Shown: positions 1 to 63,040 of the stretch, one piece after another
How positions within the stretch are numbered: the stretch's first letter is position 1
How the letters are laid out: the number at the start of each line of letters is the position of its first letter
The notes under the pieces: model-generated
What the model was told of the DNA's origin: nothing
Seen by the model: the letters and a program-made list of their open reading frames with translations, nothing else
Databases searched by the model: none
Source: Candidatus Doudnabacteria bacterium
Lineage (GTDB): Bacteria; Patescibacteriota; Doudnabacteria; UBA920
NCBI GenBank assembly: GCA_016788665.1
Contig: JAEUSF010000002.1
Location: forward strand, 73,387-137,386
Direction: 5' to 3'
Length of the DNA stretch: 64,000 nucleotides
Position numbers and translations under genes: made by a program

Positions 1-546
1 AGTTTTAAGCAAAAACTACAATACCTATCTTCTGCAAGCTATTTTTTATCTGGTGTTGTGGTTTTACTAAACGCAGCTCTACCAATTTTCGTCCTCTTTA
101 CTGGTATGCGGCCTCTGGAAATGACCACCATGGACTTGCTGGCAATTTTTTTGCCTTACATGGTACTTACCATATATGTACTACAAGTTTCCACTAACTA
201 CTCAGTAAGTTTTCGGGCAATCGCTTTTGCTGTGTCCAGCTTCTGGATACAAGTTAAAGCCTTAAACGCCGTTATTTGTGGACAGAAAAGCAAATTCAGC
301 GTAACTTCCAAAAAAAAGCTGGAAGGAAACTTCCTTTCCGTAATCATCCCTCATCTGACTTATGTTTGCTTAGCCATCTGGTCAATTTACACAGGCATAA
401 GCCGTGAAGGATGGTCTGCTTCGGTAATGAGTAATGTAGCGTGGATATTTTTTAACCTAAGCATGTTCGCACCTTTCATAGCAGCAGCACTGCCCAAATT
501 TAACTTCTTTGAAAAACCTATAGAGCAGCTGAAAACCGCTGCCTAA
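1..546 (+). CDS. C-terminal fragment (5' end outside window) of a processive family-2 glycosyltransferase (cellulose synthase/PgaC-like) membrane domain
   Basis: Frame 1 is open from nt 1. Multi-TM C-terminus with an F-x-V-T-x-K motif (KFSVTSKKK) of the kind that follows QxxRW in processive GT2 enzymes. The next gene follows 12 nt downstream. Confidence 0.4.
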   Translation, partial: SFKQKLQYLSSASYFLSGVVVLLNAALPIFVLFTGMRPLEMTTMDLLAIFLPYMVLTIYVLQVSTNYSVSFRAIAFAVSSFWIQVKALNAVICGQKSKFSVTSKKKLEGNFLSVIIPHLTYVCLAIWSIYTGISREGWSASVMSNVAWIFFNLSMFAPFIAAALPKFNFFEKPIEQLKTAA

Positions 547-558
547 ATTTAATACCTT

Positions 559-2079
559 ATGCACGAAAAGTCTAACGCCTCAAAAGCAGCAAGCACGCAA
601 TTATACGACCTGATATTTTTAAGCCTCCTGATGATTTTAGCTACCGCAATTTCGGCTTACTTTCTCCTACACCAAAGCATACGCCTGGACGAGTCACAAA
701 GTCTCTGGCAAAGCAGTCGCTCCTTAAAAGGGCTTATAAAAACCATCTCCCAAGATGTACACATGCCTTTATATTCGGTACTCCTACATTTATGGCAGCG
801 CTTAGTAGGTAACTCAATAGAAACAGCTAGAATACCCTCGTTATTTTTCTTTCTGCTTTCTATACCTGCTTTATATTCATTAGGCAAGCAAGCCTTCCAA
901 AAAAATATCGCTCGCTTTGCCTGCTTACTTTTTTCACTATCCCCCTTTATAAGCTGGTACGGAAACGAAACAAGAATGTACAGCCTTCTTACCTTGCTGA
1001 CCATTTTAAACCAGATCAGTTTCTTAAAACTAATAAGCAGCCTACAAAATAACCAGAACCATAGAATACTTTGGGCTTATTTTAGTCTGACCACCATCTT
1101 AGGAATATACACGCATTATTTTTTTTGGCTGGTTTTAACAACTCAATTTTTTTATCTTCTACTGACACACAAAAATTTATTAAAAAAATACTTTAATACT
1201 TTTATACTGATGCTAGGAATAATTTTATGCTCATTTGTCCCCTGGGTTTTACAAGTATTAAAAGTTGGCTTCTTTTCCAACACCACACCTCTCATAAATC
1301 TTCCAACTTATCTAAATCTTTTTAATAGTTTTACTCAATTTATTTTTGGCTTTCAAGCAGAAAAAATAAATACAATCATACTGTCTTTATGGCCAATAAC
1401 AGTATTAATGCTGTTCTTTTACCTGCAAAAAAATAACCGTCTAGACAAAAACGCTTTATATTTTTTACTAACCGCTTTTTTACCTCCCTTACTTATTTTT
1501 CTTATCAGCATAACAATTCGCCCCATTTTTGTTACCAGATACTTTATCTTCACCGTGCCCAGTTTGTTTTTATTTCTTAGCTGGCTTATATATGCCTACA
1601 GTAAAACTGTCTCCTATTTGCTCAAAACAACATTTGTATCAGCCATGATTTGCACGCTCTACTTACAAAATGTTTTACCCAACGCTCCCATTAAAGAAAA
1701 CTATCGTGCAGCCGCCTCCTACTTATCCTCCCAGTCTTCAAACCAAGATCTAATTGCAATTTCCGCCCCCTTCACCATATACCCCATAGAGTACTACTAC
1801 CAAGGTCCGGCGAAACTCGTGACAATCCCTTCCTGGAACCGATACGAAATAGGTCCGGTGCCTGAATTCTCGTTGGAAAATTTAAACTCGGAAAGCAAAA
1901 ATTTTGAGAAAGTTTACCAAAAAGTCTGGCTTGTGCTTTCGTACGACCAAGGTGAGGAAGCAGAAATAAAAAAATATTTTGATGAAAAATATCATAAAGT
2001 CGATGAACTCGTAATTTCAAACGGCCTCCGTTTATATGCCTACAAGCTCAGATACGACCCCCCAGTTTCCATACAATAA
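559..2079 (+). CDS. Integral membrane glycosyltransferase, GT39/GT83 (PMT/ArnT-like) family
   Basis: 506 aa with about 11 predicted TM helices. A DE-containing first extracytoplasmic loop (RLDESQS) and a soluble C-terminal domain give ArnT/PMT-like topology. Confidence 0.5.
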   Translation: MHEKSNASKAASTQLYDLIFLSLLMILATAISAYFLLHQSIRLDESQSLWQSSRSLKGLIKTISQDVHMPLYSVLLHLWQRLVGNSIETARIPSLFFFLLSIPALYSLGKQAFQKNIARFACLLFSLSPFISWYGNETRMYSLLTLLTILNQISFLKLISSLQNNQNHRILWAYFSLTTILGIYTHYFFWLVLTTQFFYLLLTHKNLLKKYFNTFILMLGIILCSFVPWVLQVLKVGFFSNTTPLINLPTYLNLFNSFTQFIFGFQAEKINTIILSLWPITVLMLFFYLQKNNRLDKNALYFLLTAFLPPLLIFLISITIRPIFVTRYFIFTVPSLFLFLSWLIYAYSKTVSYLLKTTFVSAMICTLYLQNVLPNAPIKENYRAAASYLSSQSSNQDLIAISAPFTIYPIEYYYQGPAKLVTIPSWNRYEIGPVPEFSLENLNSESKNFEKVYQKVWLVLSYDQGEEAEIKKYFDEKYHKVDELVISNGLRLYAYKLRYDPPVSIQ

Positions 2080-2087
2080 AGACGCGG

Positions 2088-3425
2088 TTATTTTGACAAT
2101 TTTGCCAACCCTAATGCATATTCAGGCCAAAATACTCCCGGCCCTGGCCCACCGTTACAACTCCCATCACTTTCTCCGGGAGGCTTTATCCAAAGATATG
2201 CATCTATACGCTCCTTACCAGTATTTAATGTCGGAACATTTCCAAGTGCCCTGCCGGAAGGATTACACCATTCGGAACCCAAAGCACCAAGGCCGTTTCT
2301 ACCAGTATCAATTACAAAATGCTTTCCTCCCACATAACTAGAAATTTTTTGTCCATATTCTGCATTTAAGCCAGTTTCAATAAAATTTGAAACATTCAAG
2401 CTAAATCCGTCGGCAGACCCAATACCCGATCGCTTTAGTCTGTCCGCCATTTCACTCGCACTCACCCAATTTGGATGCCCCGCATCCAAATACACATTTG
2501 TTCCATATTTTGTTTTTAAAATTTCAACTGCTTTCTTTAAAATTTCATACCGGGTATTTTTCAGCTGAGCATCTAAACAATCCGAAAGCGCTAAAGCATC
2601 GGGCTCTAAAATTATAATCGATTTTCCGTTTAAACCACTTGAAAAATCTGTTACCCATTTTAAGTATTTTTCCGCACTAGAACTACCCCCTGCGGAAAAC
2701 CCACCACAGTCACGAATAGGTATATTGTAAATAACAAGTACCGGAATTTTATTTTCAGTCTTGGCAGCAGTAACGATTTTTTCAACGTCTGCCTTTATAT
2801 TTTTATTCCACTCCCCAAACCATACGGCGGTTGGCTGTTTTAACTTTTCCATATATTTTACATCTTGCCCCCTCTGAACTTTCCAACTACTCATAACCTC
2901 ATCTAACATAATGCGCTTGGGTTCATATAAGCCCGAATCACCAGTTCGCGCACTTACCAAACCAACGGCTGGGGAAATAGACACAAGTGCAGAGCTATTT
3001 TGATTTTTCATCTGCTGTAAACTTAAAGAACTTTCTGCCTCCCCTATTTTCTTACCTTCGTAATCATAAGCTATAAAATTAATCCTGTAGGGTCCCAAGC
3101 CTTTCCAATTCCAACCACTAACATCTACAATCGCTTCTTTATGAGGATAGTCATGATAGCTATTATACATTTGGTTTAACTGGCCTCCATCAACCTGCCA
3201 AAACATATGATAAGTTTCTACAACGCGCCCTTGAACAACAGCCTTAAAAGGCTGCTGACCACTAACCTGCGCCATACGAACTGGCCACCAAATCTCAAGA
3301 GACTGCCAATCTGCTTCGACTTCAAAATTACGAAGGCCTCCCAAAACACTACCACTTACTACTAATACAACGAGTATTTTCACTCCTAAGCCGCACCTAA
3401 AAACATAACGTAAAATATTTATCAT
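2088..3425 (-). CDS. Secreted glycoside hydrolase family 6 (endoglucanase/cellobiohydrolase-like) with an N-terminal extra domain
   Basis: Signal peptide or TM anchor at the N-terminus. GH6 signatures are present: IYNIPIRDCGG (catalytic Asp region), IIILEPDALA (EPDSL-like), DAGHPNWV and WIKPPGESDG near the C-terminus. Confidence 0.7.
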   Translation of the reverse strand: MINILRYVFRCGLGVKILVVLVVSGSVLGGLRNFEVEADWQSLEIWWPVRMAQVSGQQPFKAVVQGRVVETYHMFWQVDGGQLNQMYNSYHDYPHKEAIVDVSGWNWKGLGPYRINFIAYDYEGKKIGEAESSLSLQQMKNQNSSALVSISPAVGLVSARTGDSGLYEPKRIMLDEVMSSWKVQRGQDVKYMEKLKQPTAVWFGEWNKNIKADVEKIVTAAKTENKIPVLVIYNIPIRDCGGFSAGGSSSAEKYLKWVTDFSSGLNGKSIIILEPDALALSDCLDAQLKNTRYEILKKAVEILKTKYGTNVYLDAGHPNWVSASEMADRLKRSGIGSADGFSLNVSNFIETGLNAEYGQKISSYVGGKHFVIDTGRNGLGALGSEWCNPSGRALGNVPTLNTGKERIDAYLWIKPPGESDGSCNGGPGPGVFWPEYALGLAKLSK

Positions 3426-3688
3426 AAATAAAATGTATTACGAACCTCTTCTTAATTTTTTTATTAACACTACCCTCGTGTCCAAGTGTAACAAAACCAC
3501 AATTTTATAACCATAAAGAAGCTTGTCACAATTCGTTATTATGACTTAGTTGCTAGCATTAAAATTTTTCTCCCCTTAATTTTATTTATTTTGCTTAAAC
3601 AAAATCATAAACGTATAATTTCCCCAAAATAAACCCAGTTTCAAACTTAGTAACCGTGTGGTAAAATATAGTAACTTAATAAAATTCT

Positions 3689-4063
3689 ATGAAAAATATT
3701 CTGTACCATTTATTATTTTTAGTATTTATATCGCTCATAAGCGGGTTTGTTTTACTTGGTCAGGCAGGGCAACTAGAACTTAACCAGGCGCTCGCAGTAA
3801 GCGGGGGTTTGGTACTCTATGCTTTAGCAATGGTTTTTGTCGGAGAAACCAAAGAAACAGACCAGCGCCAAAGTAACTTTAAAAATGTTTCTGCTAAAAC
3901 AGGGCTCACTGCAGCAATAGCAGTCTTATGCTTAGGACTTATGTATCAAATGCTTTTTACCAACACAATTGACTGGTGGCTTATAGCAAGCTTGGTAGCT
4001 ATAAATTTAACAAAGCTTATAACGCTAATTTTTTTAAACACCAACTCTAAGAGCCAGGTTTAA
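3689..4063 (+). CDS. Small membrane protein, unknown function
   Basis: 124 aa with 3-4 hydrophobic helices. Extended -10 element TGGTAAAAT about 25 nt upstream. Confidence 0.3.
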   Translation: MKNILYHLLFLVFISLISGFVLLGQAGQLELNQALAVSGGLVLYALAMVFVGETKETDQRQSNFKNVSAKTGLTAAIAVLCLGLMYQMLFTNTIDWWLIASLVAINLTKLITLIFLNTNSKSQV

Positions 4064-5417
4064 TTACCGTTAAAGCATTTCCACCCTCCAAAACCACAAA
4101 GAATTTTTCATCTTCACAATCAAAATCAACAGCCTTGGAATGTAAATCCAAGGCTGTTTTAAAATTTAAAACTAACCCATTTTTCGCCCAAACTTGGAAT
4201 TCCTTATCTTGTTCGTTAGTCGCTAAAAATATCCACCCAGACCTTTCAAATATTCCATTTACACTTGTATTTATATCCTGGCTAAAATCAGACAGTAAAG
4301 GCATAAAATTCAAATTGTTAAAAAAGTACAGCTGTTCGTATGCCCCGGCTACCAGCCCTGTCCTGCCGAAATACAGCTTGTCTCCTGCCAAATACAAAGC
4401 ATTGCCGTGTAATATACCGCTTCCATTGGGAGAAAAATTCGAAACTTCAACAATATTCGCCGGGTCCGAAACATTTAGAACCCAAACTTGCTTAACAGAA
4501 GGCGTGGCCACGTAGGCATAATTTCCGCTAACTTTTATGCTATTTGCAGTAGTTCCAAGCTCAAAAGACCCTTCTGCCCTTGGTGCACTAGGGTCTGTAA
4601 CATCTATAATGTAAAATTCTCGACTCTGCGATATTTCAGTGCCCAAGTAAATTCTTAAATTAGAATAATATAAACTCCTACCCGACGCAGCGCTTCCCGT
4701 AACATAGCTATAAACTAAAAAGGGCTCAGAGGGGTTTGAAATATTTATTATTTGCAGCTGGCTAACTGTGCTCAAATTTACCACATACGCCAAATCACCC
4801 ACCACCTTCACCCCACCCAAGCCCGGACCCGTATTTATAGAAGCAACCATGTGCGGATTTTCGGGCACAGAAATATCTACCACAAAAAAATCAGCGGACT
4901 GCAAAGTAGAAGAGTCGGCAGTTATATACGCAAACTTACCTTTTACATCTATGCCCGTAGCTTTTTCTCCCGTACCTAGAAATATTTGCCCGGGCAAAAC
5001 CGTTGGACTAGTCCAATTTCCCTTGAGGCTCAACCCGCAAGCATCACCTTCCCTAAAAGCGTCTTTGTGTATGTACACAAAAAACATTTCTGTCACACCT
5101 TGAGGCCAGAACACCTGACTTACAACTTTTCGCGACCAATTATTTATATACTGGGCCGAAACATTAACCCGAAACACTTCTTTAATTATAGTTTTGTTTA
5201 TAACAGCATTAAATTCGTTTTCAATTTCTGCTTTAGCAGCCTCCAATTCCGCCTGAGCTAATATAACCGCCTGCATATGAAGCTCTGAACGAAGCGCTAA
5301 AGACTGGTTTAAAAAAACCAAAGAAAAAACCGAAGCTGAAACTCCGGCAAGTAAAAATAACCCAACTATAGCTTCCAAGGATGCAAACCCTATTTTTCTT
5401 ACAACAGGATTCGCCAT
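4047..5417 (-). CDS. Type IV pilin-like protein: prepilin N-terminus fused to an LVIVD-repeat (beta-propeller-like) domain
   Basis: N-terminus KIGFASLEAIVGLFLLAG is a class III signal (G/F cleavage site with E at +5). The body carries repeated hydrophobic-x-V-hydrophobic-N/D-hydrophobic-S/T-D/N-P-S/A motifs, for example AYVVNLS...ISNPSEP, FYIIDVTDPSAP and VWVLNVSDPANI. Confidence 0.5.
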   Translation of the reverse strand: MANPVVRKIGFASLEAIVGLFLLAGVSASVFSLVFLNQSLALRSELHMQAVILAQAELEAAKAEIENEFNAVINKTIIKEVFRVNVSAQYINNWSRKVVSQVFWPQGVTEMFFVYIHKDAFREGDACGLSLKGNWTSPTVLPGQIFLGTGEKATGIDVKGKFAYITADSSTLQSADFFVVDISVPENPHMVASINTGPGLGGVKVVGDLAYVVNLSTVSQLQIINISNPSEPFLVYSYVTGSAASGRSLYYSNLRIYLGTEISQSREFYIIDVTDPSAPRAEGSFELGTTANSIKVSGNYAYVATPSVKQVWVLNVSDPANIVEVSNFSPNGSGILHGNALYLAGDKLYFGRTGLVAGAYEQLYFFNNLNFMPLLSDFSQDINTSVNGIFERSGWIFLATNEQDKEFQVWAKNGLVLNFKTALDLHSKAVDFDCEDEKFFVVLEGGNALTVIKPGS

Positions 5418-5421
5418 AATT

Positions 5422-6159
5422 CTATTCTCCTATTATCTCAGCTTTCACCAAATACCTTTTTAAAGCGGTTCCTATGGGGTAAGAAGTTTGTAAGCTCAAA
5501 ATTTTTCGACCTTCCGTATTTTGTGACAATACGGTTACATCGTCTGAATCAACAACACGCGTCTCATAAACTTTATACACGTACTCATATCCTTGCCTGT
5601 CAGTTATATTTATATAGTCCCCAATTTTAATCTCAGGCAACCTAGCAAACACACTCTTGAAATTTCCTTTTTTATACAAAAAATCCGACGAGTGCCCAAA
5701 AATGTAAACATTTCCAGCCAGACCCGCTTCTGCTGTCCCCATATAATGAACAACTCCGTTTTCCAAATTTTCCTGTAAGATTTTTTCTTCAGTCGAAGTT
5801 GCGTAAACTATAGGAGCTTGTATATTTAGCGTTGGTATTGCCAATAAATCAGGCTGTCCTTTTGGCCTAATGTTTTTAATGGGTAAATTACTTTCGTCGT
5901 AAGTCAAAAACACCTTAGGCCAAATAAGCGCCTTTATTTTTTCAGCAAAGTAACTTAAATTTAAAACCACAAACCCTAAAAGAACCGTGGAAAAAAATAT
6001 TCCATAAGTCTTTTTCCAATTTCGAGGATTTGTTTTTTCAAACCACTTTTTTCTAACTTCCTGTTCCGACACAACAGAAACTTTCACACGGCTTCTCGGC
6101 AAACTTTTTACTTTTTTATTTGTTTTTTTTTCGCTCTGCTTCATACTAGTAAAAAACAC
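5422..6159 (-). CDS. Sortase-family transpeptidase homolog (Ser at the catalytic Cys position)
   Basis: N-terminal TM anchor and a sortase-fold pattern: VYIFGHSS (His motif), GDYINITDRQGYEYVYKV, and a TLxTC-like strand ILSLQTSYP followed by Arg (KRYLV). The Cys codon position reads tct (Ser) on the minus strand at 5482-5484. Confidence 0.6.
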   Translation of the reverse strand: MFFTSMKQSEKKTNKKVKSLPRSRVKVSVVSEQEVRKKWFEKTNPRNWKKTYGIFFSTVLLGFVVLNLSYFAEKIKALIWPKVFLTYDESNLPIKNIRPKGQPDLLAIPTLNIQAPIVYATSTEEKILQENLENGVVHYMGTAEAGLAGNVYIFGHSSDFLYKKGNFKSVFARLPEIKIGDYINITDRQGYEYVYKVYETRVVDSDDVTVLSQNTEGRKILSLQTSYPIGTALKRYLVKAEIIGE

Positions 6160-6189
6160 CCTTAGACTTTGCTCAGGGTGTTTTTAGAT

Positions 6190-7437
6190 TTAGTCGTTGA
6201 ATTTTCTTCCAAACTTTCTGGCAGTTACAAACGAACCGGCCAAAACACCTAAATAGGCTAAAGCGGAAACAGGTCCCGTAACTGGCAAAGAGGTTGCCGC
6301 ACCTTTTACTTCGCCCACAGGCATGGGAACAGGGAGGGAATTTAGGTTTGCTGGCATACTAGTGCTTACGCCCGCAACCTGACCTGAGCTAGAACCACCA
6401 GAACCACCCGAAGGCGGAGTTGGCACTCCACTACCTCCAGAAGAAGGGGCAGGGCCACCGCCGCTTCCACCACCCGAACCGCCGCCGCCACTACCGCCGC
6501 CGGAAGGAGGAGTCAGACTGAAGTGCGCATTAGCTACTAAATTACCGGTTATAACAAAAGTACAGATAGGATTATTGCTGCCTATGCATGGACCGGAAGT
6601 CCAGGTGTCAGCAAAAGTTGAACCCGAGTCAGGAGTTGCGGTTAAAGTAACCTCTGTACCAGAAACATAAGTTTGAGAACAATCCTCGCCGCAGTTTATG
6701 CCTTCATCTGAACTATTAACAGTACCGGTACCGTCACCATTTTTAGTAACAGTTAAAGTATATTCCGGATTTTCCAAGTCATCTACAGTTACAGTACAAG
6801 TTTTTTCCTCACCGTTGGAAACTGTGGAATTACAGTCAGCAGAATATGAGTAAGCATAGCCTCCGTCTGAAACCAAAGTCACACCATAAGCACCAGAGTT
6901 TATATTGCTAGTCACCCCTGCTTCGGAACCGACAAAAGTTGTTAAAACTGGAGAGGTAGCGGTCAAATTTACAGTAAAATCTGGAGCTGCTTTAGTGCCA
7001 CTATTGTCATTGGTCACATTAACCACCACTTTAACTTTTCCAGGCTTTGAAGTGTTTGTAATAGTACAGGTAACGTCGTCACCAGAAGCCAAAGTTCCGC
7101 TGCAACCGCTATAACTTGCTTGGTATGCCGGCTCTTCGGTTTCGGTAATGTTAAAGCTACCTTCAATAGGGGTTAAAACTGTACCGGTTTCTTCACCAGG
7201 AAAGGTTTGCAAAAATATAGGCACGCCTGGCAAAGGAGGAATAACTACTGCGGTAATACTAAAGTTACCCGCAGTTTTACTGCCACCATTGTCATTTATA
7301 ACGTGCTTAATAACGGTAATCGTACCGTTTCCCAGAAGAGGAGCGTCGTCGGCTTTTACATGGCTAAAGTAAGCAATTTGAGAAATAATTGCTACCGAAA
7401 CAAACGTCTTGTATAAAAAAGATTTATATAAATTCAT
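6190..7437 (-). CDS. LPXTG-anchored surface protein with repeated Cna-B/prealbumin-like domains and a Gly/Ser-rich stalk
   Basis: Signal peptide at the N-terminus. Repeated T-C-T-(I/V)-T modules and a (GGS)n linker are present. The C-terminus LPVTG plus hydrophobic segment plus RKFGRKF is a classic sortase sorting signal. Confidence 0.7.
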   Translation of the reverse strand: MNLYKSFLYKTFVSVAIISQIAYFSHVKADDAPLLGNGTITVIKHVINDNGGSKTAGNFSITAVVIPPLPGVPIFLQTFPGEETGTVLTPIEGSFNITETEEPAYQASYSGCSGTLASGDDVTCTITNTSKPGKVKVVVNVTNDNSGTKAAPDFTVNLTATSPVLTTFVGSEAGVTSNINSGAYGVTLVSDGGYAYSYSADCNSTVSNGEEKTCTVTVDDLENPEYTLTVTKNGDGTGTVNSSDEGINCGEDCSQTYVSGTEVTLTATPDSGSTFADTWTSGPCIGSNNPICTFVITGNLVANAHFSLTPPSGGGSGGGGSGGGSGGGPAPSSGGSGVPTPPSGGSGGSSSGQVAGVSTSMPANLNSLPVPMPVGEVKGAATSLPVTGPVSALAYLGVLAGSFVTARKFGRKFND

Positions 7438-7562: not shown

Positions 7563-8033
7563 ATGAGGAAACTTGTTCTCTGTTTGTTTCTCACGGTCGC
7601 TGCAAACGCAGCTACCGTAAACATCTACCCCACGCTCGACTGCACCGTCGGAGGCACTTCGGCAGCCACAACAGGGCTGTGTGCAAATCCCAACGGTCCG
7701 ACCACAGTTGGGTTTGTTGTTGTAACCAACGACATGCTCAACCCCAGCGACCAGAACGACTGGGTCCAGGTCCTGGAGTTTCCGAATGCCGGTGGCGGCG
7801 TTGCCACCAACTTTCGACTCTACTCCGATCCGTTGACGTTTCCGAGCTTCGGCTCGGCGTCAACTACGGTGCCGTTTGCTACCCTATTTTCTGTATACAA
7901 CCCCGCGCAGGGGTTTGTGTACAACATCTACAACCCGCCTACCAACGGGGGCGGTAATGTTCCCGAGTCCGGCACCATGCTTATGGTTGCCGGAGGACTC
8001 GCAGGAATTGTTGCAGTCCGCCGAAAGGGCTGA
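7563..8033 (+). CDS. GC-rich secreted protein with a PEP-CTERM-like C-terminal sorting signal (VPESG-TM-RRKG)
   Basis: Signal peptide MRKLVLCLFLTVAANAA. C-terminus ...GNVPESGTMLMVAGGLAGIVAVRRKG. The ORF is about 58% GC against an AT-rich background. Confidence 0.55.
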   Translation: MRKLVLCLFLTVAANAATVNIYPTLDCTVGGTSAATTGLCANPNGPTTVGFVVVTNDMLNPSDQNDWVQVLEFPNAGGGVATNFRLYSDPLTFPSFGSASTTVPFATLFSVYNPAQGFVYNIYNPPTNGGGNVPESGTMLMVAGGLAGIVAVRRKG

Positions 8034-8099: not shown

Positions 8100-8642
8100 C
8101 TATCTAGTTATACAAATAGGTCCTGTGCCAGCCAAAGCTGGTTCTACTGTCATTGCGCATACCGTAACCCTGCCACTTGTGTCTCTATACACAGAATAAC
8201 CGGTATCATAATCATCGTCCGTCGCCCACGATGCGGTTGTCGGAGTAGTGGTGCTCGGGTCAAATGGCATAGAAGTTATATAAGTAGGAACCAAACATTC
8301 AGCAATGTCGTAATACGACTGATTGGTTTTTTCACCCATACGTACTGCCGTTACCTCACTCACAGCAGAACTTGGTATGTCGGTACAGCCACTGCCTGGA
8401 AAAACACCTTTATTGTCTGCCACCCGCTGACCAATAGCGTTTAAAATTGCGTTAACATTACTGGTCCTCTGGGTGTTTCGGCTTTGAGCAAACTGCCTGG
8501 CAGGATTAATGGCAATTAAAACAATAACAGCCAAGACAGCTATCATGCCCATAACCACCAAAATTTCTATAAGCGTAAAACCTTTGTTTAACAAAGTGTA
8601 ATTTTTATTTTGCATAAATAAAATTAAATTATTAAATAGCAA
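8100..8642 (-). CDS. pilA: Type IV major pilin (PilA-like); probable true start at the Met 9 codons downstream (about 8615)
   Basis: MQNKNYTLLNKGFTLIEILVVMGMIAVLAVIV is a canonical prepilin leader (G|FTLIE) with a hydrophobic alpha1 helix. Cys pair in the C-terminal region. Confidence 0.75.
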   Translation of the reverse strand: MLFNNLILFMQNKNYTLLNKGFTLIEILVVMGMIAVLAVIVLIAINPARQFAQSRNTQRTSNVNAILNAIGQRVADNKGVFPGSGCTDIPSSAVSEVTAVRMGEKTNQSYYDIAECLVPTYITSMPFDPSTTTPTTASWATDDDYDTGYSVYRDTSGRVTVCAMTVEPALAGTGPICITR

Positions 8643-8684
8643 AAATTTATTTATGACGTGTCTAAAAAATACTGCATAAATTTT

Positions 8685-26012: not shown

Positions 26013-26749
26013 GATGGGAGTCTTCTGGAAGACTCCCATCTTTTTTATTCGTCAATTAACAATTTTTCTAAATCTTTTCGCTCCCTGATTCTCTCGTAAC
26101 TATTTTCTACAAAACTTTCATAGCCATCGCTCGATTGCATATCTAAGATAAACTTTTTTTCACATAAAGTACCATTCCGCACACCCAAATAATCTAAATA
26201 GCTGCTCCATTGATACTTTTTAAGGCTCTCAACAATGCCTGAAACTTTTGGGTTCTGGTGTATATAAGCCGAAAGCCAAGCTAATTGGGAATCATTTTTT
26301 ATCAGCACTGACTTGAAAGCATCTTGGAAAAGATGCCCCACTCTACCATACTTCTTGTTAAAATATTTACTATAGCTGGTACAAATTTTAGAAACTAACT
26401 TACTTATTTCTGTATCTCCGTTTTGTCGGATTAATAAATGAAAATGGTTTGGCATTAAGCAATAACACAATAGTGTAAAAGCATCTGCTGGCAAACTTTT
26501 TCTTATATAGGAACCTCCAAGGTTTTTTTCGGCAAACGGCATGTTTTTTAAGGGAAATAAATTTTCTTTTAACCTGTAAAGAAAAAACTTAAAGTCATCT
26601 TCATCTTTAAAAATATCCATTTTCCCTACGCCACGGTTAAAAACATGATAACAAGCTTTAGGCGCAAAGTTTTTATAATCCCTATTGTTCATAGCCTACT
26701 GCTTATGCTTTAAACAAGTTTTGATGGGAGTCTTCTGGAAGACTCCCAT
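26013..26749. mobile_element. IS200/IS605-family minimal element (or RAYT/REP-like unit): Y1 HUH transposase flanked by identical 28-nt hairpins
   Basis: GATGGGAGTCTTCTGGAAGACTCCCATC occurs at 26013-26040 and again at 26722-26749 in the same orientation. The two copies flank only the tnpA gene, for a total of about 737 bp. Confidence 0.7.
26045..26692 (-). CDS. tnpA: IS200/IS605-family Y1 (HUH) transposase TnpA / REP-associated tyrosine transposase
   Basis: CYHVFNRG near the N-terminus, HUH motif LMPNHFHLL, and catalytic Tyr-containing helix (SYSKYFNKKY). Confidence 0.8.
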   Translation of the reverse strand: MNNRDYKNFAPKACYHVFNRGVGKMDIFKDEDDFKFFLYRLKENLFPLKNMPFAEKNLGGSYIRKSLPADAFTLLCYCLMPNHFHLLIRQNGDTEISKLVSKICTSYSKYFNKKYGRVGHLFQDAFKSVLIKNDSQLAWLSAYIHQNPKVSGIVESLKKYQWSSYLDYLGVRNGTLCEKKFILDMQSSDGYESFVENSYERIRERKDLEKLLIDE

Positions 26750-28191: not shown

Positions 28192-29616
28192 TTATTTTTT
28201 CACCAGCTCTACAACTTCTTTTATTTTATCTTCCAAAAGCTCCTTTGCATTGGCTTCCACATTTATACGAAGCAAACTTTCCGTATTGCTCTTTCTAACA
28301 TTAAACCGCCAATTTGGATAATTAAAACTTAAGCCGTCTATTTCTTCTATTTTAGAATCGCTGTACTTTTGCTTAAAAGCCGACAAGGCAGCAGCTAAAT
28401 TTGCCACTTTAAAATTCATTTCTTCTGAAATAAAAAACTTTTCCCTTAGAGTTTTTAAAATCTCCGAAAATTTTACACCTTCACCCGTGGAGGACAAAAT
28501 ATCCAGCACAATAAACAAGGGAAACAATCCGTTGTCCAAATAAAAAGTATCTTTAAAATAATAGTGTCCAGAAGTTTCGCTACCAAATACTGCACCTTCT
28601 TTTATCATTCTTTCTTTTATGAAACTATGACCAGCTTTTGTTTGGACTGGCACTCCCCCATTTTTCTCCACCATATAGTCTATAACCCTAACTACACGGG
28701 TATCGTGCACAATTTTTCCACCTGGAAACTTTTGTAAATAATACTCAGAAACTAAAGCATTCACATATGCCGGGGTGACAAAATCACCGTTTTCGTCAAA
28801 GAAAAAGCATCTATCTGCATCAGCATCCCACGCCACGCCCAAATCTGCCCCATGCTCTTTTAAAGCGGCAATTATTTCTGCTCTGTTTTCAGGTATAAGC
28901 GGATCCGGCCTGCCTAAAGGCAACGGGAAATTGCCGTCCAAACCTTCGTATACAACTTTTACGAAATTTGTTTTGGGAAAATATTTTTTTAAATATTCTA
29001 CCGACAAATTCCCCATGCCAAAATTCGTATTTGCAACTATTTTAAAGTTTTTAAACTTAGAAGTATCAAAATTGGAAATTACAAACTCAAAATACTCTTC
29101 CTTTATATCTTTCTGTATTACTGTCCCTGATTTGGAATTTGTTATTTGTAATTTGGAATTTGCATTTACCAAATCCCTGATTTGGTAAATGCCAGTATCT
29201 CCCGAAATAGGTTTACCTTTTTTCCCGACCAATTTTAAACCACCATACTCTTTTGGGTTATGACTAGCAGTAATTTGTATACCACCGTCTACGTCTAAAG
29301 TAGCGGCTGCATAGTAAAGCATATCGGTGGAAACCAAGCCCAAATCTACAACATTAACTCCAGCTTCTGTAAGACCCCGTATAACCGCCTCTGTAAACTC
29401 TTCTCCACTAAGCCTCATGTCGTGACCAACCACAATAGTTAATCCTTGATCCCCGCCTTGATCGACAGTTCGAGCTGGTTTAACCCTTGCTCCTTCACTC
29501 TCAGAAAGAAACTTAACATATGCCTGAGCAATTTTATAAACCACTTCAGTGTTAATTTGGCTCGGGTAAACTCCCCTTATGTCATAAGCTTTAAATATAG
29601 ATGTGTCGATATTCAT
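28192..29616 (-). CDS. Phosphoglucomutase/phosphomannomutase family (alpha-D-phosphohexomutase)
   Basis: Active-site loop TASHNPKEYGG, Mg-binding DADADR and sugar-binding GSETSGH motifs. Confidence 0.85.
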   Translation of the reverse strand: MNIDTSIFKAYDIRGVYPSQINTEVVYKIAQAYVKFLSESEGARVKPARTVDQGGDQGLTIVVGHDMRLSGEEFTEAVIRGLTEAGVNVVDLGLVSTDMLYYAAATLDVDGGIQITASHNPKEYGGLKLVGKKGKPISGDTGIYQIRDLVNANSKLQITNSKSGTVIQKDIKEEYFEFVISNFDTSKFKNFKIVANTNFGMGNLSVEYLKKYFPKTNFVKVVYEGLDGNFPLPLGRPDPLIPENRAEIIAALKEHGADLGVAWDADADRCFFFDENGDFVTPAYVNALVSEYYLQKFPGGKIVHDTRVVRVIDYMVEKNGGVPVQTKAGHSFIKERMIKEGAVFGSETSGHYYFKDTFYLDNGLFPLFIVLDILSSTGEGVKFSEILKTLREKFFISEEMNFKVANLAAALSAFKQKYSDSKIEEIDGLSFNYPNWRFNVRKSNTESLLRINVEANAKELLEDKIKEVVELVKK

Positions 29617-35963: not shown

Positions 35964-38042
35964 TTAATTCAGCCTAGAATCACTCCAGGACATTGGAGCT
36001 AAAATTGGTTTTTGAAAATCGTAAATATTTGCCGGAACAACCAAGCTGGAAGAACCCCTGTTGTTCAAAAATATTTCCCAAGACGGTACCGGCACCAAGC
36101 CCTGCTCATGAACAAAATATATTGTACTACCACTCTGCACCCAACTTCCCCACGGGTGTGAAGTATTTAAGTTGTTTATAATATAACCCGTACTAGGAAT
36201 ATTGTTATAGCCCACATTCAATACATTAGAGAATTTAAACCCAAACCCTGTAAAAATATGTGCCGAGGCAAAACCACTCTTTTGACCTCTATAAACAATA
36301 TATACTGTACCATTTTCAGAAATAAGCTGACCATTTGGATAAGTAGAAGAACCTAATACTCCACCATTTCCGCTTATTGTAAAGCTTGCTGTGGCGTTCC
36401 TGCCATAATTATCGCTCACCCTAACCTGAAAACTCGAGGACTGCGCATTTTGTGCAATGCCGGAAATAAATCCGCTTTGAGACAAAGACAACCCAACAGG
36501 CAACTGACCACTAACTACATAAAAATTATATGGTGCCGTACCGCCGTAAGCTTGCATCTGATAGCTATAGTACTGCCCCAAAGTTATAACAGGCAAAGTT
36601 GTATTGGAAAAGTTTAAAGTACCAGTATTGCCAGATCCAGAAACATTAACCATAACGGTTCCGCAAGCATAAGGACTATTTTGACACACTATTATAGCTG
36701 TATTTCCCTGCGTATTTCCGTAAACATACAAATTGCCGGCCGACAAGGATACCGATGCTACATAAGCGCTGCTATTAGATGATATATAGTAACTACCGTT
36801 GCCATAAATAGAAATATTTGCACTTTGCCCGGACGAAAGAGTTATATTGTTTTGGCTAAATGTTAAATTCTGTCCCCAACCCCCTCCGCTCACAGTTAAG
36901 TTAAGAGTTCCGCAAGTTGAGACGTTAGATGACTGGCATACTACCAGACTAGTAGAGCCCTGATTGTATGCCGTAACAGTAAGTTGATTGCCAGTTATAC
37001 TAACCGCCGCAATATATGAATTACTTCCACTGGAAATATAGTAACTTCCTGTGTAATTCTGAGAACCATAAATATAAACTGTAGTGCTCTGCCCGGCATT
37101 CATATTTAAACTACTTGGACTGAACCAAATATTACCGGAGTTAGAAGCGTTCACACTTACAAGCAAAGTTGCGCATGCATTGTTGTTATATTGGCAAACT
37201 ACCACATTTGCGCTGCCATTTCCTACTCCTCTTAAACTTAAAACATTCCCTGAAACCGTGGCCGAAACTACGTTATAATTGGAGTTTGAGGAAATATAGA
37301 ATGCCCCGCTATTTTGGTTATTGCTGTAAATGTTTATAGTGGAATTCTGATCCTGATTCAAATTTACTGTACTTTGACTAAACCACAAATTCCCATTTCC
37401 TTGCCCCGCATTTACCACAACATATATTGTATTACAAGAACCAGAAGTGTTATGACAAACATTTATAGTAGAACTACCGCTTTGACTGCCATACAAATTT
37501 AAAATTGATCCGGATACTGAAGCAGTAACAACCGAAGGATTACTGTTAGAAGAAATGTAATAAGAGGTGTTGTACCCATAGCCACTGCTACTTATAGAAA
37601 CCGCCAAACTTTGACCCACATTTAAAGTAGGATTTTGAGGACTAAACCATAAATTGCCCGAATTTCCGCAACCATAAAGACAACTGCCGACGCCTACAGA
37701 CACAGTATCAGAAGACTGGCTATTTACAGTCACATAAAACTGTTCCATACCCGAACCCAAATAAGTCGTAATATTCAAGCTGCCGTTATAGTCCGTCTGC
37801 CCTATTGGGTCAACAACAGTTGACCATAAGTTACTATTTTGAGCCTTAGCATACAACACAACCCTAGAATTAGAGTCACCATTACTAACAAAAACCTTAT
37901 AACTACCATAACCACCTTCTTGACTAACACTTAAAGAAGGCTTGCGACCGTAATTATAATACTGAGCGGAAGCTTCTGTCATTAAACCCATAGCCAGAAA
38001 ACAAACCGCGACCACACCTCCCAAAATTTTAATTGTTTTCAT
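35964..38042 (-). CDS. Secreted protein with about six tandem Big_2-like (bacterial Ig-like) repeats and a C-terminal domain
   Basis: Signal peptide at the N-terminus. About 80-aa repeats of the form NLWFSxxxxxLNxGQS..V.IxxS...YYISSNSN..VxxxSVSGN.L...G...GS..xxVC. The DNA-level tandem repeats span about 36200-37700. Confidence 0.6.
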   Translation of the reverse strand: MKTIKILGGVVAVCFLAMGLMTEASAQYYNYGRKPSLSVSQEGGYGSYKVFVSNGDSNSRVVLYAKAQNSNLWSTVVDPIGQTDYNGSLNITTYLGSGMEQFYVTVNSQSSDTVSVGVGSCLYGCGNSGNLWFSPQNPTLNVGQSLAVSISSSGYGYNTSYYISSNSNPSVVTASVSGSILNLYGSQSGSSTINVCHNTSGSCNTIYVVVNAGQGNGNLWFSQSTVNLNQDQNSTINIYSNNQNSGAFYISSNSNYNVVSATVSGNVLSLRGVGNGSANVVVCQYNNNACATLLVSVNASNSGNIWFSPSSLNMNAGQSTTVYIYGSQNYTGSYYISSGSNSYIAAVSITGNQLTVTAYNQGSTSLVVCQSSNVSTCGTLNLTVSGGGWGQNLTFSQNNITLSSGQSANISIYGNGSYYISSNSSAYVASVSLSAGNLYVYGNTQGNTAIIVCQNSPYACGTVMVNVSGSGNTGTLNFSNTTLPVITLGQYYSYQMQAYGGTAPYNFYVVSGQLPVGLSLSQSGFISGIAQNAQSSSFQVRVSDNYGRNATASFTISGNGGVLGSSTYPNGQLISENGTVYIVYRGQKSGFASAHIFTGFGFKFSNVLNVGYNNIPSTGYIINNLNTSHPWGSWVQSGSTIYFVHEQGLVPVPSWEIFLNNRGSSSLVVPANIYDFQKPILAPMSWSDSRLN

Positions 38043-61730: not shown

Positions 61731-62318
61731 ATGGTTCATTTTGTTAACCTATTCCTCTCTTGGATAGAAGCTTCCAAATACACACTTCTCTTTTTTGGAT
61801 CAATAGCCGAAGGCCCGATACTTACTTTAACATCGGGCTTTTTGGTACGACTTAAACAACTAGACTTGGTTCCGGCTTACTTTTTACTGGTAGCGGGAGA
61901 CTTTACTGCAGACATTGTTTGGTACAACATAGGCAGACACGGAGCAAGAAGACTTATAAATAGGTTCGGAAGTTTTTTCAACATTACTCCTGAAATTATA
62001 AGCAAGGTTGAAAAACGCTTTCACACTTACCAAACACCAATTTTATTTTTATCAAAAATCACTATGGGCTTTGGCTTTGGACTAGCAACACTTCTAGTAG
62101 CCGGTATGCTTAAAGTGCCTTTAAAAAACTATATTCTCCTTAATTTAACTGGTGGGTTAATATGGACAGCTCTTTTGCTAATACTAGGGTATTTTTTTGG
62201 CAACGCTTACATACTTGTCGCCAAACCCTTCCGTGCCATATTTTTAGCTTTACTCATACTTCTAGTTGGCTTTGGGCTCTACGGCATAAACCGTTACCTA
62301 GTAAAAAAAGAAATATGA
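61731..62318 (+). CDS. DedA/VTT-domain membrane protein
   Basis: DedA consensus segment FLSWIEASKYTLLFFGSIAEGPILTLTSGFLV...GDFTADIVWYNIGRHGARR. Confidence 0.8.
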   Translation: MVHFVNLFLSWIEASKYTLLFFGSIAEGPILTLTSGFLVRLKQLDLVPAYFLLVAGDFTADIVWYNIGRHGARRLINRFGSFFNITPEIISKVEKRFHTYQTPILFLSKITMGFGFGLATLLVAGMLKVPLKNYILLNLTGGLIWTALLLILGYFFGNAYILVAKPFRAIFLALLILLVGFGLYGINRYLVKKEI

Positions 62319-63040
62319 TATCCATAATAATTCCTACCCTGAATGAAGAAAAAGTTTTAGAAAAAACGCTCCTCGCTTTACGAAAACTTATTTCTACACC
62401 CTTTGAAATAATAATCTCTGACGGAGGAAGCAGAGACGACACCTTAAACATTGCTCGAAAATACGCTCACAAAGTTGTCGAGTGCGAAAAAGGAGTAAAA
62501 CAAACCATCGCTCTTGGCCGCAATTTGGGTGCCAAATATTCTAACGGAGACATGTTAGTTTTTCTAGATGCAGATGTGGAAATTCCTGAAATTAATACAT
62601 TCTTTGAAACGGCGGTAAATAAATTTGAAAATCAAAAAAATCTGGTCGGTCTGAGCGTTTTTTTAAAAGTCTTTCCACAACATGCCACTCTTTCAGACAA
62701 GTTATTTTTTAAGCTAGTAAATTATATACATTACACAGCAAATCATCTGTTACCGCTTGGTTCTGCTTCGGGAGAGTTTCAAATGATAACACGACAAGCT
62801 TTTTTAGCAGCAGGGGGCTACAGAACCGACTTAGCTGTGGGTGAAGATGTAGAAATGTTTTCCAGACTCAGGAAGTTAGGTAAAACCAGAATCGAAGCCG
62901 GTCTCCACGTCTTACATACCGGACGACGAGCCCATGCTGTAGGCTGGGGAAAGCTATGGTATTTATGGATAAAAAATAACTTAATTTTTATTAAATTATT
63001 TAACAGATCTTTTACCAAAGAATGGACTGCAATAAGATAG
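62315..63040 (+). CDS. Family-2 glycosyltransferase (start ATG 62315, overlapping the dedA stop as ATGA)
   Basis: MISIIIPTLNEEKVLEKTL, DGGSRDDT and a DAD motif (FLDADVEIP). Confidence 0.8.
   Translation: MISIIIPTLNEEKVLEKTLLALRKLISTPFEIIISDGGSRDDTLNIARKYAHKVVECEKGVKQTIALGRNLGAKYSNGDMLVFLDADVEIPEINTFFETAVNKFENQKNLVGLSVFLKVFPQHATLSDKLFFKLVNYIHYTANHLLPLGSASGEFQMITRQAFLAAGGYRTDLAVGEDVEMFSRLRKLGKTRIEAGLHVLHTGRRAHAVGWGKLWYLWIKNNLIFIKLFNRSFTKEWTAIR

Follow-up and report, generated by a model that had tools for sequence, protein, structure and literature searches.

In Streptomyces, the cslA-glxA-cslZ cluster encodes a GH6 enzyme (CslZ) beside a cellulose-synthase-like GT2 (PMC9040799; PMC8892547; our comparison with this cluster draws on PMC9040799 and bioRxiv 10.1101/2023.11.20.567928). 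Proteobacterial BcsABZC operons combine the synthase BcsA with the GH8 enzyme BcsZ (PMC8892547). The clostridial ccsABZ operon, a Gram-positive-type cellulose operon, has a membrane-tethered endoglucanase of a family other than GH8 (Scott et al. 2020, as reviewed in PMC8892547), which indicates, as far as the account in that review goes, that the hydrolase family is interchangeable. In the same account the ccsABZ hydrolase is a GH5 enzyme and the operon is accompanied by a BcsB homologue and O-acetylation genes, with no mention of a GT-C transferase. A separate group of systems, the three-component GtrA/GtrB/GT-C glycosylation systems (also ArnC-ArnT and CsbB-GtcA-YfhO), decorates O-antigen, teichoic acids or lipid A.

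The locus described here opens a stretch of 64,000 nucleotides, referred to as the window, from the metagenome-assembled genome of an uncultured Candidatus Doudnabacteria organism (CPR/Patescibacteria), which is the source of the two complete proteins in Table 1. An earlier note on this DNA had claimed a partial GT2, a GT39/ArnT-like transferase and a secreted GH6 hydrolase; all three genes are real, with open reading frames exactly as described there. The convergence that it reported is also present: the stop codons of the GT-C and GH6 genes are 8 nt apart. It had missed the invariance of the GT-C partner, the absence of PilZ and BcsB, and the unclassified N-terminal module of the GH6 enzyme. 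The GC content of the locus is 0.38-0.45, and promoter and terminator scans of positions 1-4200 gave scores no better than those of shuffled sequence. Taken jointly with the mechanism of synthesis and trimming set out below, the region is probably the last two-thirds (3') of an operon that is conserved in Patescibacteria, with the order GH8, BcsA-like GT2 and GT-C, plus a convergent GH6 accessory.

Table 1. Features of the locus, with coordinates in the window.
Feature	Position	Strand	Basis
3' end of BcsA-like processive GT2 (181 codons + stop)	1..546	+	open frame entering from window edge
FxVTxK gating-loop motif, F-S-V-T-S-K	295..312	+	alignment to KFNVTAK of E. coli BcsA
GT-C fold glycosyltransferase gene, 506 aa, MBL8029890.1	559..2079	+	ORF, Pfam PMT_2
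D44-E45 of R-L-D-E motif, first extracytoplasmic loop after TM1	688..693	+	putative catalytic acidic pair
GH6 endoglucanase gene, 445 aa, MBL8029891.1	2088..3425	-	ORF, Pfam PF01341
GH6 catalytic domain, residues ~172-445	2091..2912	-	complete catalytic set
N-terminal ~95-aa all-beta module of GH6, residues ~40-136, unclassified	3018..3308	-	predicted structure
Signal peptide or membrane anchor of GH6, MINILRYVFRCGLGVKILVVLVVSGSVLGGLRNFEVEA	3312..3425	-	read from sequence

The complete operon is visible in related genomes. The closest relative (L002) mirrors seven genes of the window and encodes, with 5-nt intergenic gaps, a GH8 of 400 aa, a GT2 of 517 aa and the GT-C, with the GH6 convergent; the best NCBIfam match of this GH8 is the BcsZ model (7.7e-43). 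Among GTDB representative genomes the best locus has 58% identity. Conservation was counted across metagenomic loci anchored on the GT-C gene. A GT2 is directly upstream of the GT-C in 50 of 52 loci, and a BcsZ-like GH8 comes immediately before the GT2 in all 42 loci with enough flank, as it does in L002, L082 and L083. The synthase has the GT-C gene as its invariant partner in the operon and, given the 12-nt gap that follows the GT2 stop codon and the position of GT2 in these loci, the two are co-transcribed. What had looked like a GH6 in place of the usual GH8 is an artefact of the window edge, because in relatives the GH8 sits directly upstream of GT2 and so has not been replaced. In the source genome, to judge from these relatives, it almost certainly lies just past the edge.

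The GH6 gene is a frequent but non-obligatory accessory of the operon. It is found within 10 kb in 16 of 22 loci (15/20 after removal of near-duplicates) and is both convergent and directly downstream in 16 of 49. With GH6 as the anchor, species-representative genomes yield 11 type-A clusters and 5 diverged type-B clusters; among GH6 loci of the CPR type, roughly 40% have no synthase nearby. GH6 is not rare in CPR: of the 8,000 candidates scored, 6,477 were matches, and the named top matches are nearly all Patescibacteria. Loci with other taxon labels, such as 'Acidobacteriaceae' (L019), 'Actinomycetota' (L056) and 'Gammaproteobacteria' (L005, L014), are on short contigs with CPR-type genes, and their labels are probably the result of mis-binning.

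In the type-B clusters, which come from Saccharibacteria, Peribacteria and Rubrobacteraceae, the same parts recur but in fused form. GT-C and GH8 form a single open reading frame of 942 aa in L011 and 954 aa in L027, and the same fusion is indicated by tblastn in L012. A small GT2 is fused to the processive GT2 in L011 and L034, and by tblastn in L012. Each of these fusions is again accompanied by a convergent GH6. For the small GT2s, the best matches are ArnC, PpgS, AglJ and Dol-P-hexose transferases. The type-B synthases look more PgaC-like than CelA-like, scoring higher with PgaC/XrtP-type models.

The gene content differs from that of each of the cellulose systems named above. As in BcsABZC, a BcsA-aligned GT2 with the DxD, (T/A)ED, QxxRW and FxVTxK motifs shares an operon with a BcsZ-like GH8; unlike BcsABZC, the CPR cluster lacks PilZ, BcsB, BcsC and BcsQ and has an extra GH6, and the GT-C gene occupies the position of BcsB. 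No BcsB family match was found in Pfam-annotated genes within +/-8 kb of L082 and L083 or in the window ORFs at 1-8 kb, and neither BcsC nor BcsQ was found in the annotated neighbourhoods of L082 and L083. The Streptomyces csl cluster is likewise a monoderm-type system, with a BcsA-like GT2 that lacks BcsB and BcsC, an adjacent GH6 in the opposite orientation and, as the gene that follows the synthase, an obligatory membrane partner that is not a Bcs protein; GT2 and GH6 are likewise close together in the Streptomyces loci L072 and L076. This precedent removes the argument that a GH6 beside a synthase is unusual in itself. However, in Streptomyces the partner is GlxA, a copper radical oxidase, and in CPR it is a GT-C transferase, no GlxA-like gene flanks the operon in the window, L002, L082 or L083, the Streptomyces system has no GH8, and identity between the CPR GT2 and CslA is only ~30%.

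The product of the truncated first frame comprises the C-terminal transmembrane helices and gating loop of a BcsA-like GT2, the catalytic GT-A domain of which would lie beyond the window. A Pfam search with the 181-aa fragment gave no match and a word-indexed homologue search gave one. Against NCBIfam it matched TIGR03030 CelA (6.6e-10, profile positions 393-562), and its only sequence matches in the PDB were to E. coli BcsA (residues 518-689, 5.4e-5), with fragment residues 99-104 (FSVTSK) aligned to the gating-loop motif; FxVTxK is reportedly typical of cellulose synthases, as known from the BcsA structures of Morgan et al. The fragment is 77% identical to the C-terminus (residues 337-517) of the full-length 517-aa L002 orthologue, which aligns with BcsA 7lby (1.7e-51, E. 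coli BcsA residues 213-684) and contains the GT-A motifs NDG, DAD, AED and QHFRWARG; a QQFRW motif is found in the homologue P0121. A PilZ domain is absent from the window GT2, as its frame stops at 546, ~17 residues past the last transmembrane helix, and BcsA residue 689, up to which it can be aligned, lies ahead of PilZ. The L002 orthologue likewise has no PilZ match.

The L002 GT2 scores 262 bits with the CelA model, compared with 78 for PgaC and 41 for NodC, but misses the NCBIfam equivalog cut-offs (262 versus 699 bits for TIGR03030; 210 versus 992 for PRK11498). The GT2 therefore reads as a relative of CelA and no equivalog of it. Because the score is far under the CelA cut-off and the type-B synthases are more PgaC-like, product specificity cannot be read from sequence, and the same two observations would fit a GT2 that makes mixed-linkage glucan, a (gluco)mannan, chitin, a PNAG-like polymer or a lipid-linked oligomer, on which the hydrolases would then act. 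The operon neighbourhoods frequently contain GH113, which is a mannanase family, and GH8 also includes chitosanases, lichenases and xylanases. We nevertheless regard such a polymer as quite unlikely, since the window-type GT2 clearly prefers the CelA model, the fragment has only BcsA as sequence relatives in the PDB with FxVTxK aligned, the GH8 matches BcsZ best, and characterised GH6 enzymes are overwhelmingly beta-1,4-glucanases.

The second gene encodes a GT-C transferase with the PMT_2/ArnT fold. Its product matches Pfam PMT_2 (PF13231, E=2.3e-10, 41.3 bits versus a gathering score of 26.1) and is named 'glycosyltransferase family 39 protein' by NCBI, and its best NCBIfam match is a remote mycobacterial mannosyltransferase model (53 versus 900 bits). 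A sequence search against the PDB gave no match, and structural relatives emerged from fold comparison only. The AF2 model (pLDDT 86, pTM 0.87) is closest in Foldseek to ArnT (5ezm, TM 0.61/0.58), with further matches to STT3, PglB, ALG9 and Pmt4, all of them, ArnT included, at prob 1.0. Residues R42-L43-D44-E45 are invariant in 24 homologues at 41-61% identity, and by analogy with PMT and ArnT enzymes D44-E45 may form the catalytic acidic pair.

The GT-C fold and the acidic motif in loop 1 are features shared with the three-component glycosylation systems. In L001, L082, L089, L096, L107, L110 and others the operon has GtrA- and GtrB/ArnC-like genes at its flanks, a GtrB-like GT2 is within 10 kb in 7 of 22 loci, and the small GT2 fused to the synthase in type B adds to the resemblance; within the window, no GtrA/GtrB pair adjoins the operon. 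The known systems modify the acceptors named above, whereas the CPR cluster would act on a synthase-dependent glucan. The PMT_2 assignment and the GT39 name could instead mean that the GT-C is a PMT-like protein O-glycosyltransferase, unrelated to glucan synthesis, that decorates secreted proteins, for instance at the Ser/Thr/Pro-rich linkers of GH6 and of further surface proteins. Homologous CPR GH6 enzymes do have long P/T/S/A-rich linkers in the alignment, and in actinobacteria the linkers of cellulases are O-mannosylated by Pmt. Such a role is nonetheless very unlikely: the coupling of the GT-C is to the synthase, near-absolute across the loci counted, and not to GH6, its fusion partner is GH8 and not a protein substrate, and its best structural match, ArnT, is a lipid- and glycan-modifying enzyme, with Pmt1/2/4 aligning to the N-terminal part of the model only.

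The third gene encodes what its sequence indicates is an intact GH6 endoglucanase. Beyond the Pfam match (E=4.7e-59, 201 bits versus a cut-off of 27), which bears out the family named in the earlier note, the protein matches 46 PDB GH6 sequences, and its best solved relatives are M. tuberculosis CelA1 (Rv0062; 1up0, 2.4e-63) and T. fusca Cel6A/E2 (1tml). The motifs picked out before are located at residues 238-242 (RDCGG), 274-279 (EPDALA) and 412-421 (WIKPPGESDG). In alignment to 1tml numbering, Y233, D239, D276 (the acid), D314 and D420 correspond to TfCel6A Y73, D79, D117, D156 and D265; they are invariant in homologue alignment A1, and both disulfide pairs (C240/C283 and C387/C423) are retained. 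The enzyme has the GH6 fold of the open-cleft, endoglucanase subtype and is not a cellobiohydrolase, and with every catalytic residue intact it is not a pseudogene. By reading, the sequence has no lipobox and a lipoprotein was rejected; CslZ, in contrast, is a lipoprotein and has no extra module. The N-terminal signal or anchor segment is a low-confidence helix in the predicted model.

The N-terminal module is modelled with 8 strands at a pLDDT of ~90 and has no Pfam or PDB sequence match, whereas CelA1 and Cel6A carry CBM2 or no module. Among 1.84 billion proteins it was found in only 342 representatives, fused to GH5, GH12, GH44, GH113, GH6, CHAP and FG-GAP proteins; other lineages have PA14/GLEYA or CBM60 at the same position on GH6. 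We regard this beta-sandwich as a candidate carbohydrate-binding or surface module.

The occurrence of this module on GH5, GH12, GH44 and GH113 enzymes counts against a role in glucan synthesis, as such a pattern is just as characteristic of CAZymes that degrade. Possibly together with the GH8, the GH6 might be a nutritional glucanase that acts on environmental, plant or host beta-glucans for a sugar-fermenting episymbiont, with proximity to the synthase reflecting a general 'glycan island'. In L004, L007, L067 and L077 the GH6 is beside a GH113 enzyme instead of a synthase, about a quarter of operons (5-6 of about 20) have no GH6 within 10 kb, and published surveys interpret the glycoside hydrolases of CPR as catabolic (PMC9868632). 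Against this, GH8 is inside the operon wherever flank allowed it to be counted and is fused to GT-C in type B, the GH6 stays convergent beside synthase modules of two very different types, in lineages far apart that include Rubrobacteraceae, and CslZ is an existing synthase-linked GH6. We consider scavenging unlikely. Of the two functions put forward in the earlier note, synteny and the fusions favour synthesis and trimming of a beta-glucan, although the argument from unusualness does not hold.

We therefore favour, as the probable reading, a synthase-dependent machine for a cellulose-like surface glucan, in which the synthase has a GT-C as obligatory partner and two glucanases do the trimming; both hydrolases, GH8 and GH6, belong to beta-1,4-glucanase families. 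The GT2 would polymerise a beta-1,4-glucan from nucleotide sugar and thread the chain through its own membrane channel, in the manner of BcsA but without PilZ/c-di-GMP control and without BcsB. The GT-C, as its obligatory membrane partner, would most likely act at the outer face, transferring a sugar from a polyprenyl-phosphate donor to the nascent glucan or its acceptor; this donor would be made by the small GT2 of GtrB/ArnC type, which many relatives have in an adjacent or fused form. A second possibility is that the GT-C substitutes for BcsB. A membrane-anchored BcsZ-like GH8 and the GH6 would trim, release or remodel the polymer at the cell surface, with the beta-sandwich module tethering or targeting the GH6.

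A more far-reaching proposal, which we put forward tentatively, is that the locus represents an undescribed envelope-glycan machine that is widely conserved in CPR and present in some Actinomycetota. It would consist of a PilZ-less and BcsB-less BcsA-type synthase with an obligatory GT-C that is fed by a GtrB/ArnC-like polyprenyl-phosphate-sugar synthase; its product would be a cellulose-like surface glucan, decorated or anchored, that GH8 and GH6 would process, the GH6 module would found a new carbohydrate-binding module family, and the polymer could serve as episymbiont attachment or cell-wall material. Within the library of papers searched, we found no description of the cluster in work on CPR cellulose synthases, GH6, endoglucanases and glycosyltransferases or on BcsA with GT-C partners, an absence that is no proof of novelty.

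CPR/Patescibacteria account for a large share of bacterial diversity and have tiny genomes and a host-attached lifestyle, and their envelope polymers are almost uncharted. A strictly conserved operon of GH8, synthase and GT-C suggests that these bacteria invest in a cellulose-like surface glycan and that they use a new variant of the synthase-dependent pathway, with a possible BcsB-independent way of running a BcsA-type synthase. The GH6 N-terminal module is a candidate new carbohydrate-binding module, and the genes of the operon provide testable candidates for host attachment or cell-wall material.

We confirmed all three ORFs that the earlier note had placed at the left edge of the window, namely a partial GT2, a membrane transferase and a GH6 hydrolase. 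The GT2 fragment has no Pfam match. It aligns to the membrane region at the C-terminal end of the CelA model, its PDB matches are limited to residues 518-689 of E. coli BcsA, and its FSVTSK motif falls on the BcsA FxVTxK gating loop. Alignment to BcsA also shows that a PilZ domain is missing, with the protein stopping before that region. No PDB entry is related in sequence to the GT-C protein, whose structure model (pTM 0.87) shows a GT-C fold resembling that of ArnT (TM 0.61) and also those of STT3, PglB, ALG9 and Pmt4; an R-L-D-E motif after TM1 is invariant among homologues. The hydrolase is unambiguously assigned by its sequence to GH6. Among solved structures, a PDB sequence search placed it closest to M. 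tuberculosis CelA1 (2.4e-63) and T. fusca Cel6A, and alignment equates Y233, D239, D276, D314 and D420 with TfCel6A Y73, D79, D117 (the acid), D156 and D265. The catalytic set and both disulfide pairs are invariant across 25 homologues. MBL8029891.1 and MBL8029890.1, encoded on a 151-kb contig of a Candidatus Doudnabacteria MAG, match the window GH6 and GT-C proteins, respectively, with 100% identity.

Features of the glycan cluster and of related loci (L, loci in relatives; P, homologous proteins; positions are in the window unless a locus is named)
Feature	Position	Strand	Basis
GT2 C-terminal fragment, 181 codons	1-546	plus	CelA model TIGR03030, 6.6e-10
GT-C transferase, 506 aa	559-2079	plus	Pfam PMT_2 above threshold
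GH6 hydrolase, 445 aa	2088-3425	minus	Pfam PF01341, E=4.7e-59
GH6 N-terminal ~95-aa beta-sandwich module, residues ~40-136	3018-3308	minus	structure model
Other occurrences of the N-terminal module	P0242-P0384; L082 11180-11464		
Module-bearing GH113 enzyme	L082 9662-11476; also L003, L004, L007, L010, L015, L021, L067, L077		
PMT_2~GH8 fusions	L011 11833-14661; L027 10891-13755; L012 ~4589-7372 (from tblastn)		
Small ArnC/GtrB-like GT2~processive GT2 fusions	L011 14609-16921; L034 13785-16010		

In the closest relative (L002), seven successive genes of the window have counterparts, with identities of 54-82%. There, a membrane-anchored GH8 is followed by the GT2 and the GT-C, with intergenic gaps of 5 nt and a convergent GH6. 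The GH8 matches the BcsZ model (7.7e-43), and the 517-aa GT2 aligns to E. coli BcsA 213-684 (1.7e-51), carries the motifs DAD, AED and QHFRWARG, and scores 262 bits against CelA versus 78 against PgaC and 41 against NodC. Two Pfam-annotated metagenomic contigs (L082 and L083) have the same gene order. We also searched metagenome contigs with the GT-C protein as anchor, taking as denominators the loci with enough flank. A GT2 lies directly upstream of the GT-C in 50/52 loci and a GH8 lies upstream in 42/42. GH6 occurs within 10 kb in 16/22 (15/20 without near-duplicates) and is convergent and directly downstream, as in the window, in 16/49; a GtrB-like small GT2, often accompanied by GtrA, is found within 10 kb in 7/22. 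A search anchored on GH6 gave 11 loci with this cluster in species-representative genomes. From these counts, the GH8-synthase-GT-C operon is the invariant core of the cluster and GH6 a frequent accessory. The idea that GH6 stands here in place of the usual GH8 is almost certainly an artefact of the window edge. Of the two functions that the earlier note had offered, synthesis and trimming of a polymer is the better supported, although the oddity it claimed is not real.

The N-terminal module of the GH6 enzyme is confidently predicted to be an eight-stranded beta domain; by sequence it matches nothing in Pfam or the PDB. Among 1.84 billion representative proteins, searched exhaustively with HMMER, only 342 carry the module, fused in one to five copies to GH5, GH12, GH44, GH113, GH6, CHAP or FG-GAP proteins, and it is apparently confined largely to CPR. 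Its fusion to many GHs, and the replacement of the module by PA14/GLEYA or CBM60 at the same GH6 position in other lineages, make it a candidate new carbohydrate-binding or surface-targeting module. A GH113-family enzyme of ~600 aa with the module at its C-terminus is repeatedly encoded next to the CPR GH6 and the synthase operon; the window lacks this enzyme.

Five GH6 loci (L008, L011, L012, L027 and L034) initially looked as if they had no such cluster, but they carry a diverged version of it. In the saccharibacterial locus L034, a 741-aa fusion of a small GT2 to the processive GT2 is followed by a PMT_2 protein and a GH8, with a PA14-GLEYA-GH6 protein convergent. The peribacterial locus L011 has this same GT2 fusion (770 aa) followed by a 942-aa PMT_2~GH8 fusion, and its convergent GH6 bears two copies of the N-terminal module. 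On a complete Rubrobacteraceae chromosome (L027), a small GT2, a processive GT2 and a 954-aa PMT_2~GH8 fusion are accompanied by a convergent CBM60-GH6. The small GT2s of the diverged clusters best resemble ArnC, PpgS, AglJ and Dol-P-hexose transferases, all polyprenyl-phosphate sugar synthases. The fusions tie GT-C to GH8 and the lipid-sugar synthase to the polymerase. GH6 could instead be a nutritional glucanase, in keeping with the presence of its N-terminal module on many degradative GHs and with the existence of some GH6 loci without a synthase. However, the recurrence of a convergent GH6 beside two very different versions of the synthase module argues that it is functionally part of that module.

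We propose that the GT2 builds a beta-1,4-glucan chain and exports it in the manner of BcsA, but without PilZ/c-di-GMP control and without BcsB. GT-C, which occupies the usual gene position of BcsB, would work on the outer face, most plausibly transferring a polyprenyl-P-linked sugar onto the glucan or joining the glucan to an acceptor. Alternatively, it may have a structural, BcsB-like role, or it could be a protein O-glycosyltransferase. GH8 and GH6 would trim, release or remodel the polymer. A cellulose-like product is favoured by the presence of two beta-1,4-glucanase families, by the CelA-like scores and by the FxVTxK motif. A competing possibility is a different polymer: the synthases of the diverged clusters look more PgaC-like, and polymer identity is not fixed by sequence alone. 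Elsewhere in the window (61731-63040, plus strand), two overlapping genes encode a homologue of DedA/UptA-like undecaprenyl-phosphate transporters (6.9e-14) and a 292-aa GT2 (PF00535). This GT2, which weakly resembles the GtrB-like gene found in related clusters (31% over 96 aa), may supply GT-C with its polyprenyl-P-sugar donor. A phosphomanno/phosphoglucomutase is encoded at 28192-29616.

An LVIVD-repeat beta-propeller protein (456 aa; 4047-5417, minus strand; PF08309, 7e-22) has an N-terminus (…RKIGFASLEAIVGLFLLAGV…) that resembles a type IV pilin/pseudopilin prepilin signal, with no Pfam N_methyl match; its gene also adjoins GH6 in L002 (54% identity). At 5422-7437 (minus strand), a sortase (PF04203) is encoded beside a 415-aa SpaA-like/InlB-B-repeat surface protein that contains a stretch rich in Gly and Ser, carries an LPVTG sorting signal at its C-terminus and is 82% identical in L002. 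With these features the 415-aa protein is predicted to be a surface protein or pilin anchored by sortase, and it is encoded right next to the glycan genes. A small secreted protein (156 aa; 7563-8033, plus strand) has a C-terminus that weakly resembles PEP-CTERM (E=7e-4, under the gathering score); if real, this would be odd for a CPR genome. The gene for this protein is followed by a type IV pilus block (8100-12316, minus strand) of two N-methyl-motif pilins, a PilC-like T2SSF protein and a PilB/T-like T2SSE ATPase; an additional T2SS/T3SS pilus-N domain protein is encoded at 35964-38042. Further along, an IS200-like Y1 transposase ORF (26045-26692, minus strand; PF01797, 1e-11) overlaps by 8 nt with the start of a neighbouring class I (Trp/Tyr-type) tRNA synthetase gene. 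Every 2-kb bin of the window (1-64000) has a negative GC skew (-0.04 to -0.27), whatever the gene orientation; this strand asymmetry is strong and uniform, and the window lies on one replichore.

The closest published system is Streptomyces cslA-glxA-cslZ, in which a BcsB-less synthase has an obligatory unusual partner and a neighbouring GH6, CslZ (PMC9040799; PMC8892547). The cluster has its synthase core and GH8 in common with proteobacterial BcsABZC, and the clostridial ccs system shows that one hydrolase family can stand in for another (PMC8892547). The nearest analogue of GT-C with a small GT2 is three-component glycosylation of the Gtr/Arn type. In none of these systems is a BcsA-type synthase paired with a GT-C, and we found no description of the cluster in the literature searched on CPR/Patescibacteria or BcsA/GT-C pairing. 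The main points of interest of the cluster are the GT-C partnership, the gene fusions and the candidate new module.
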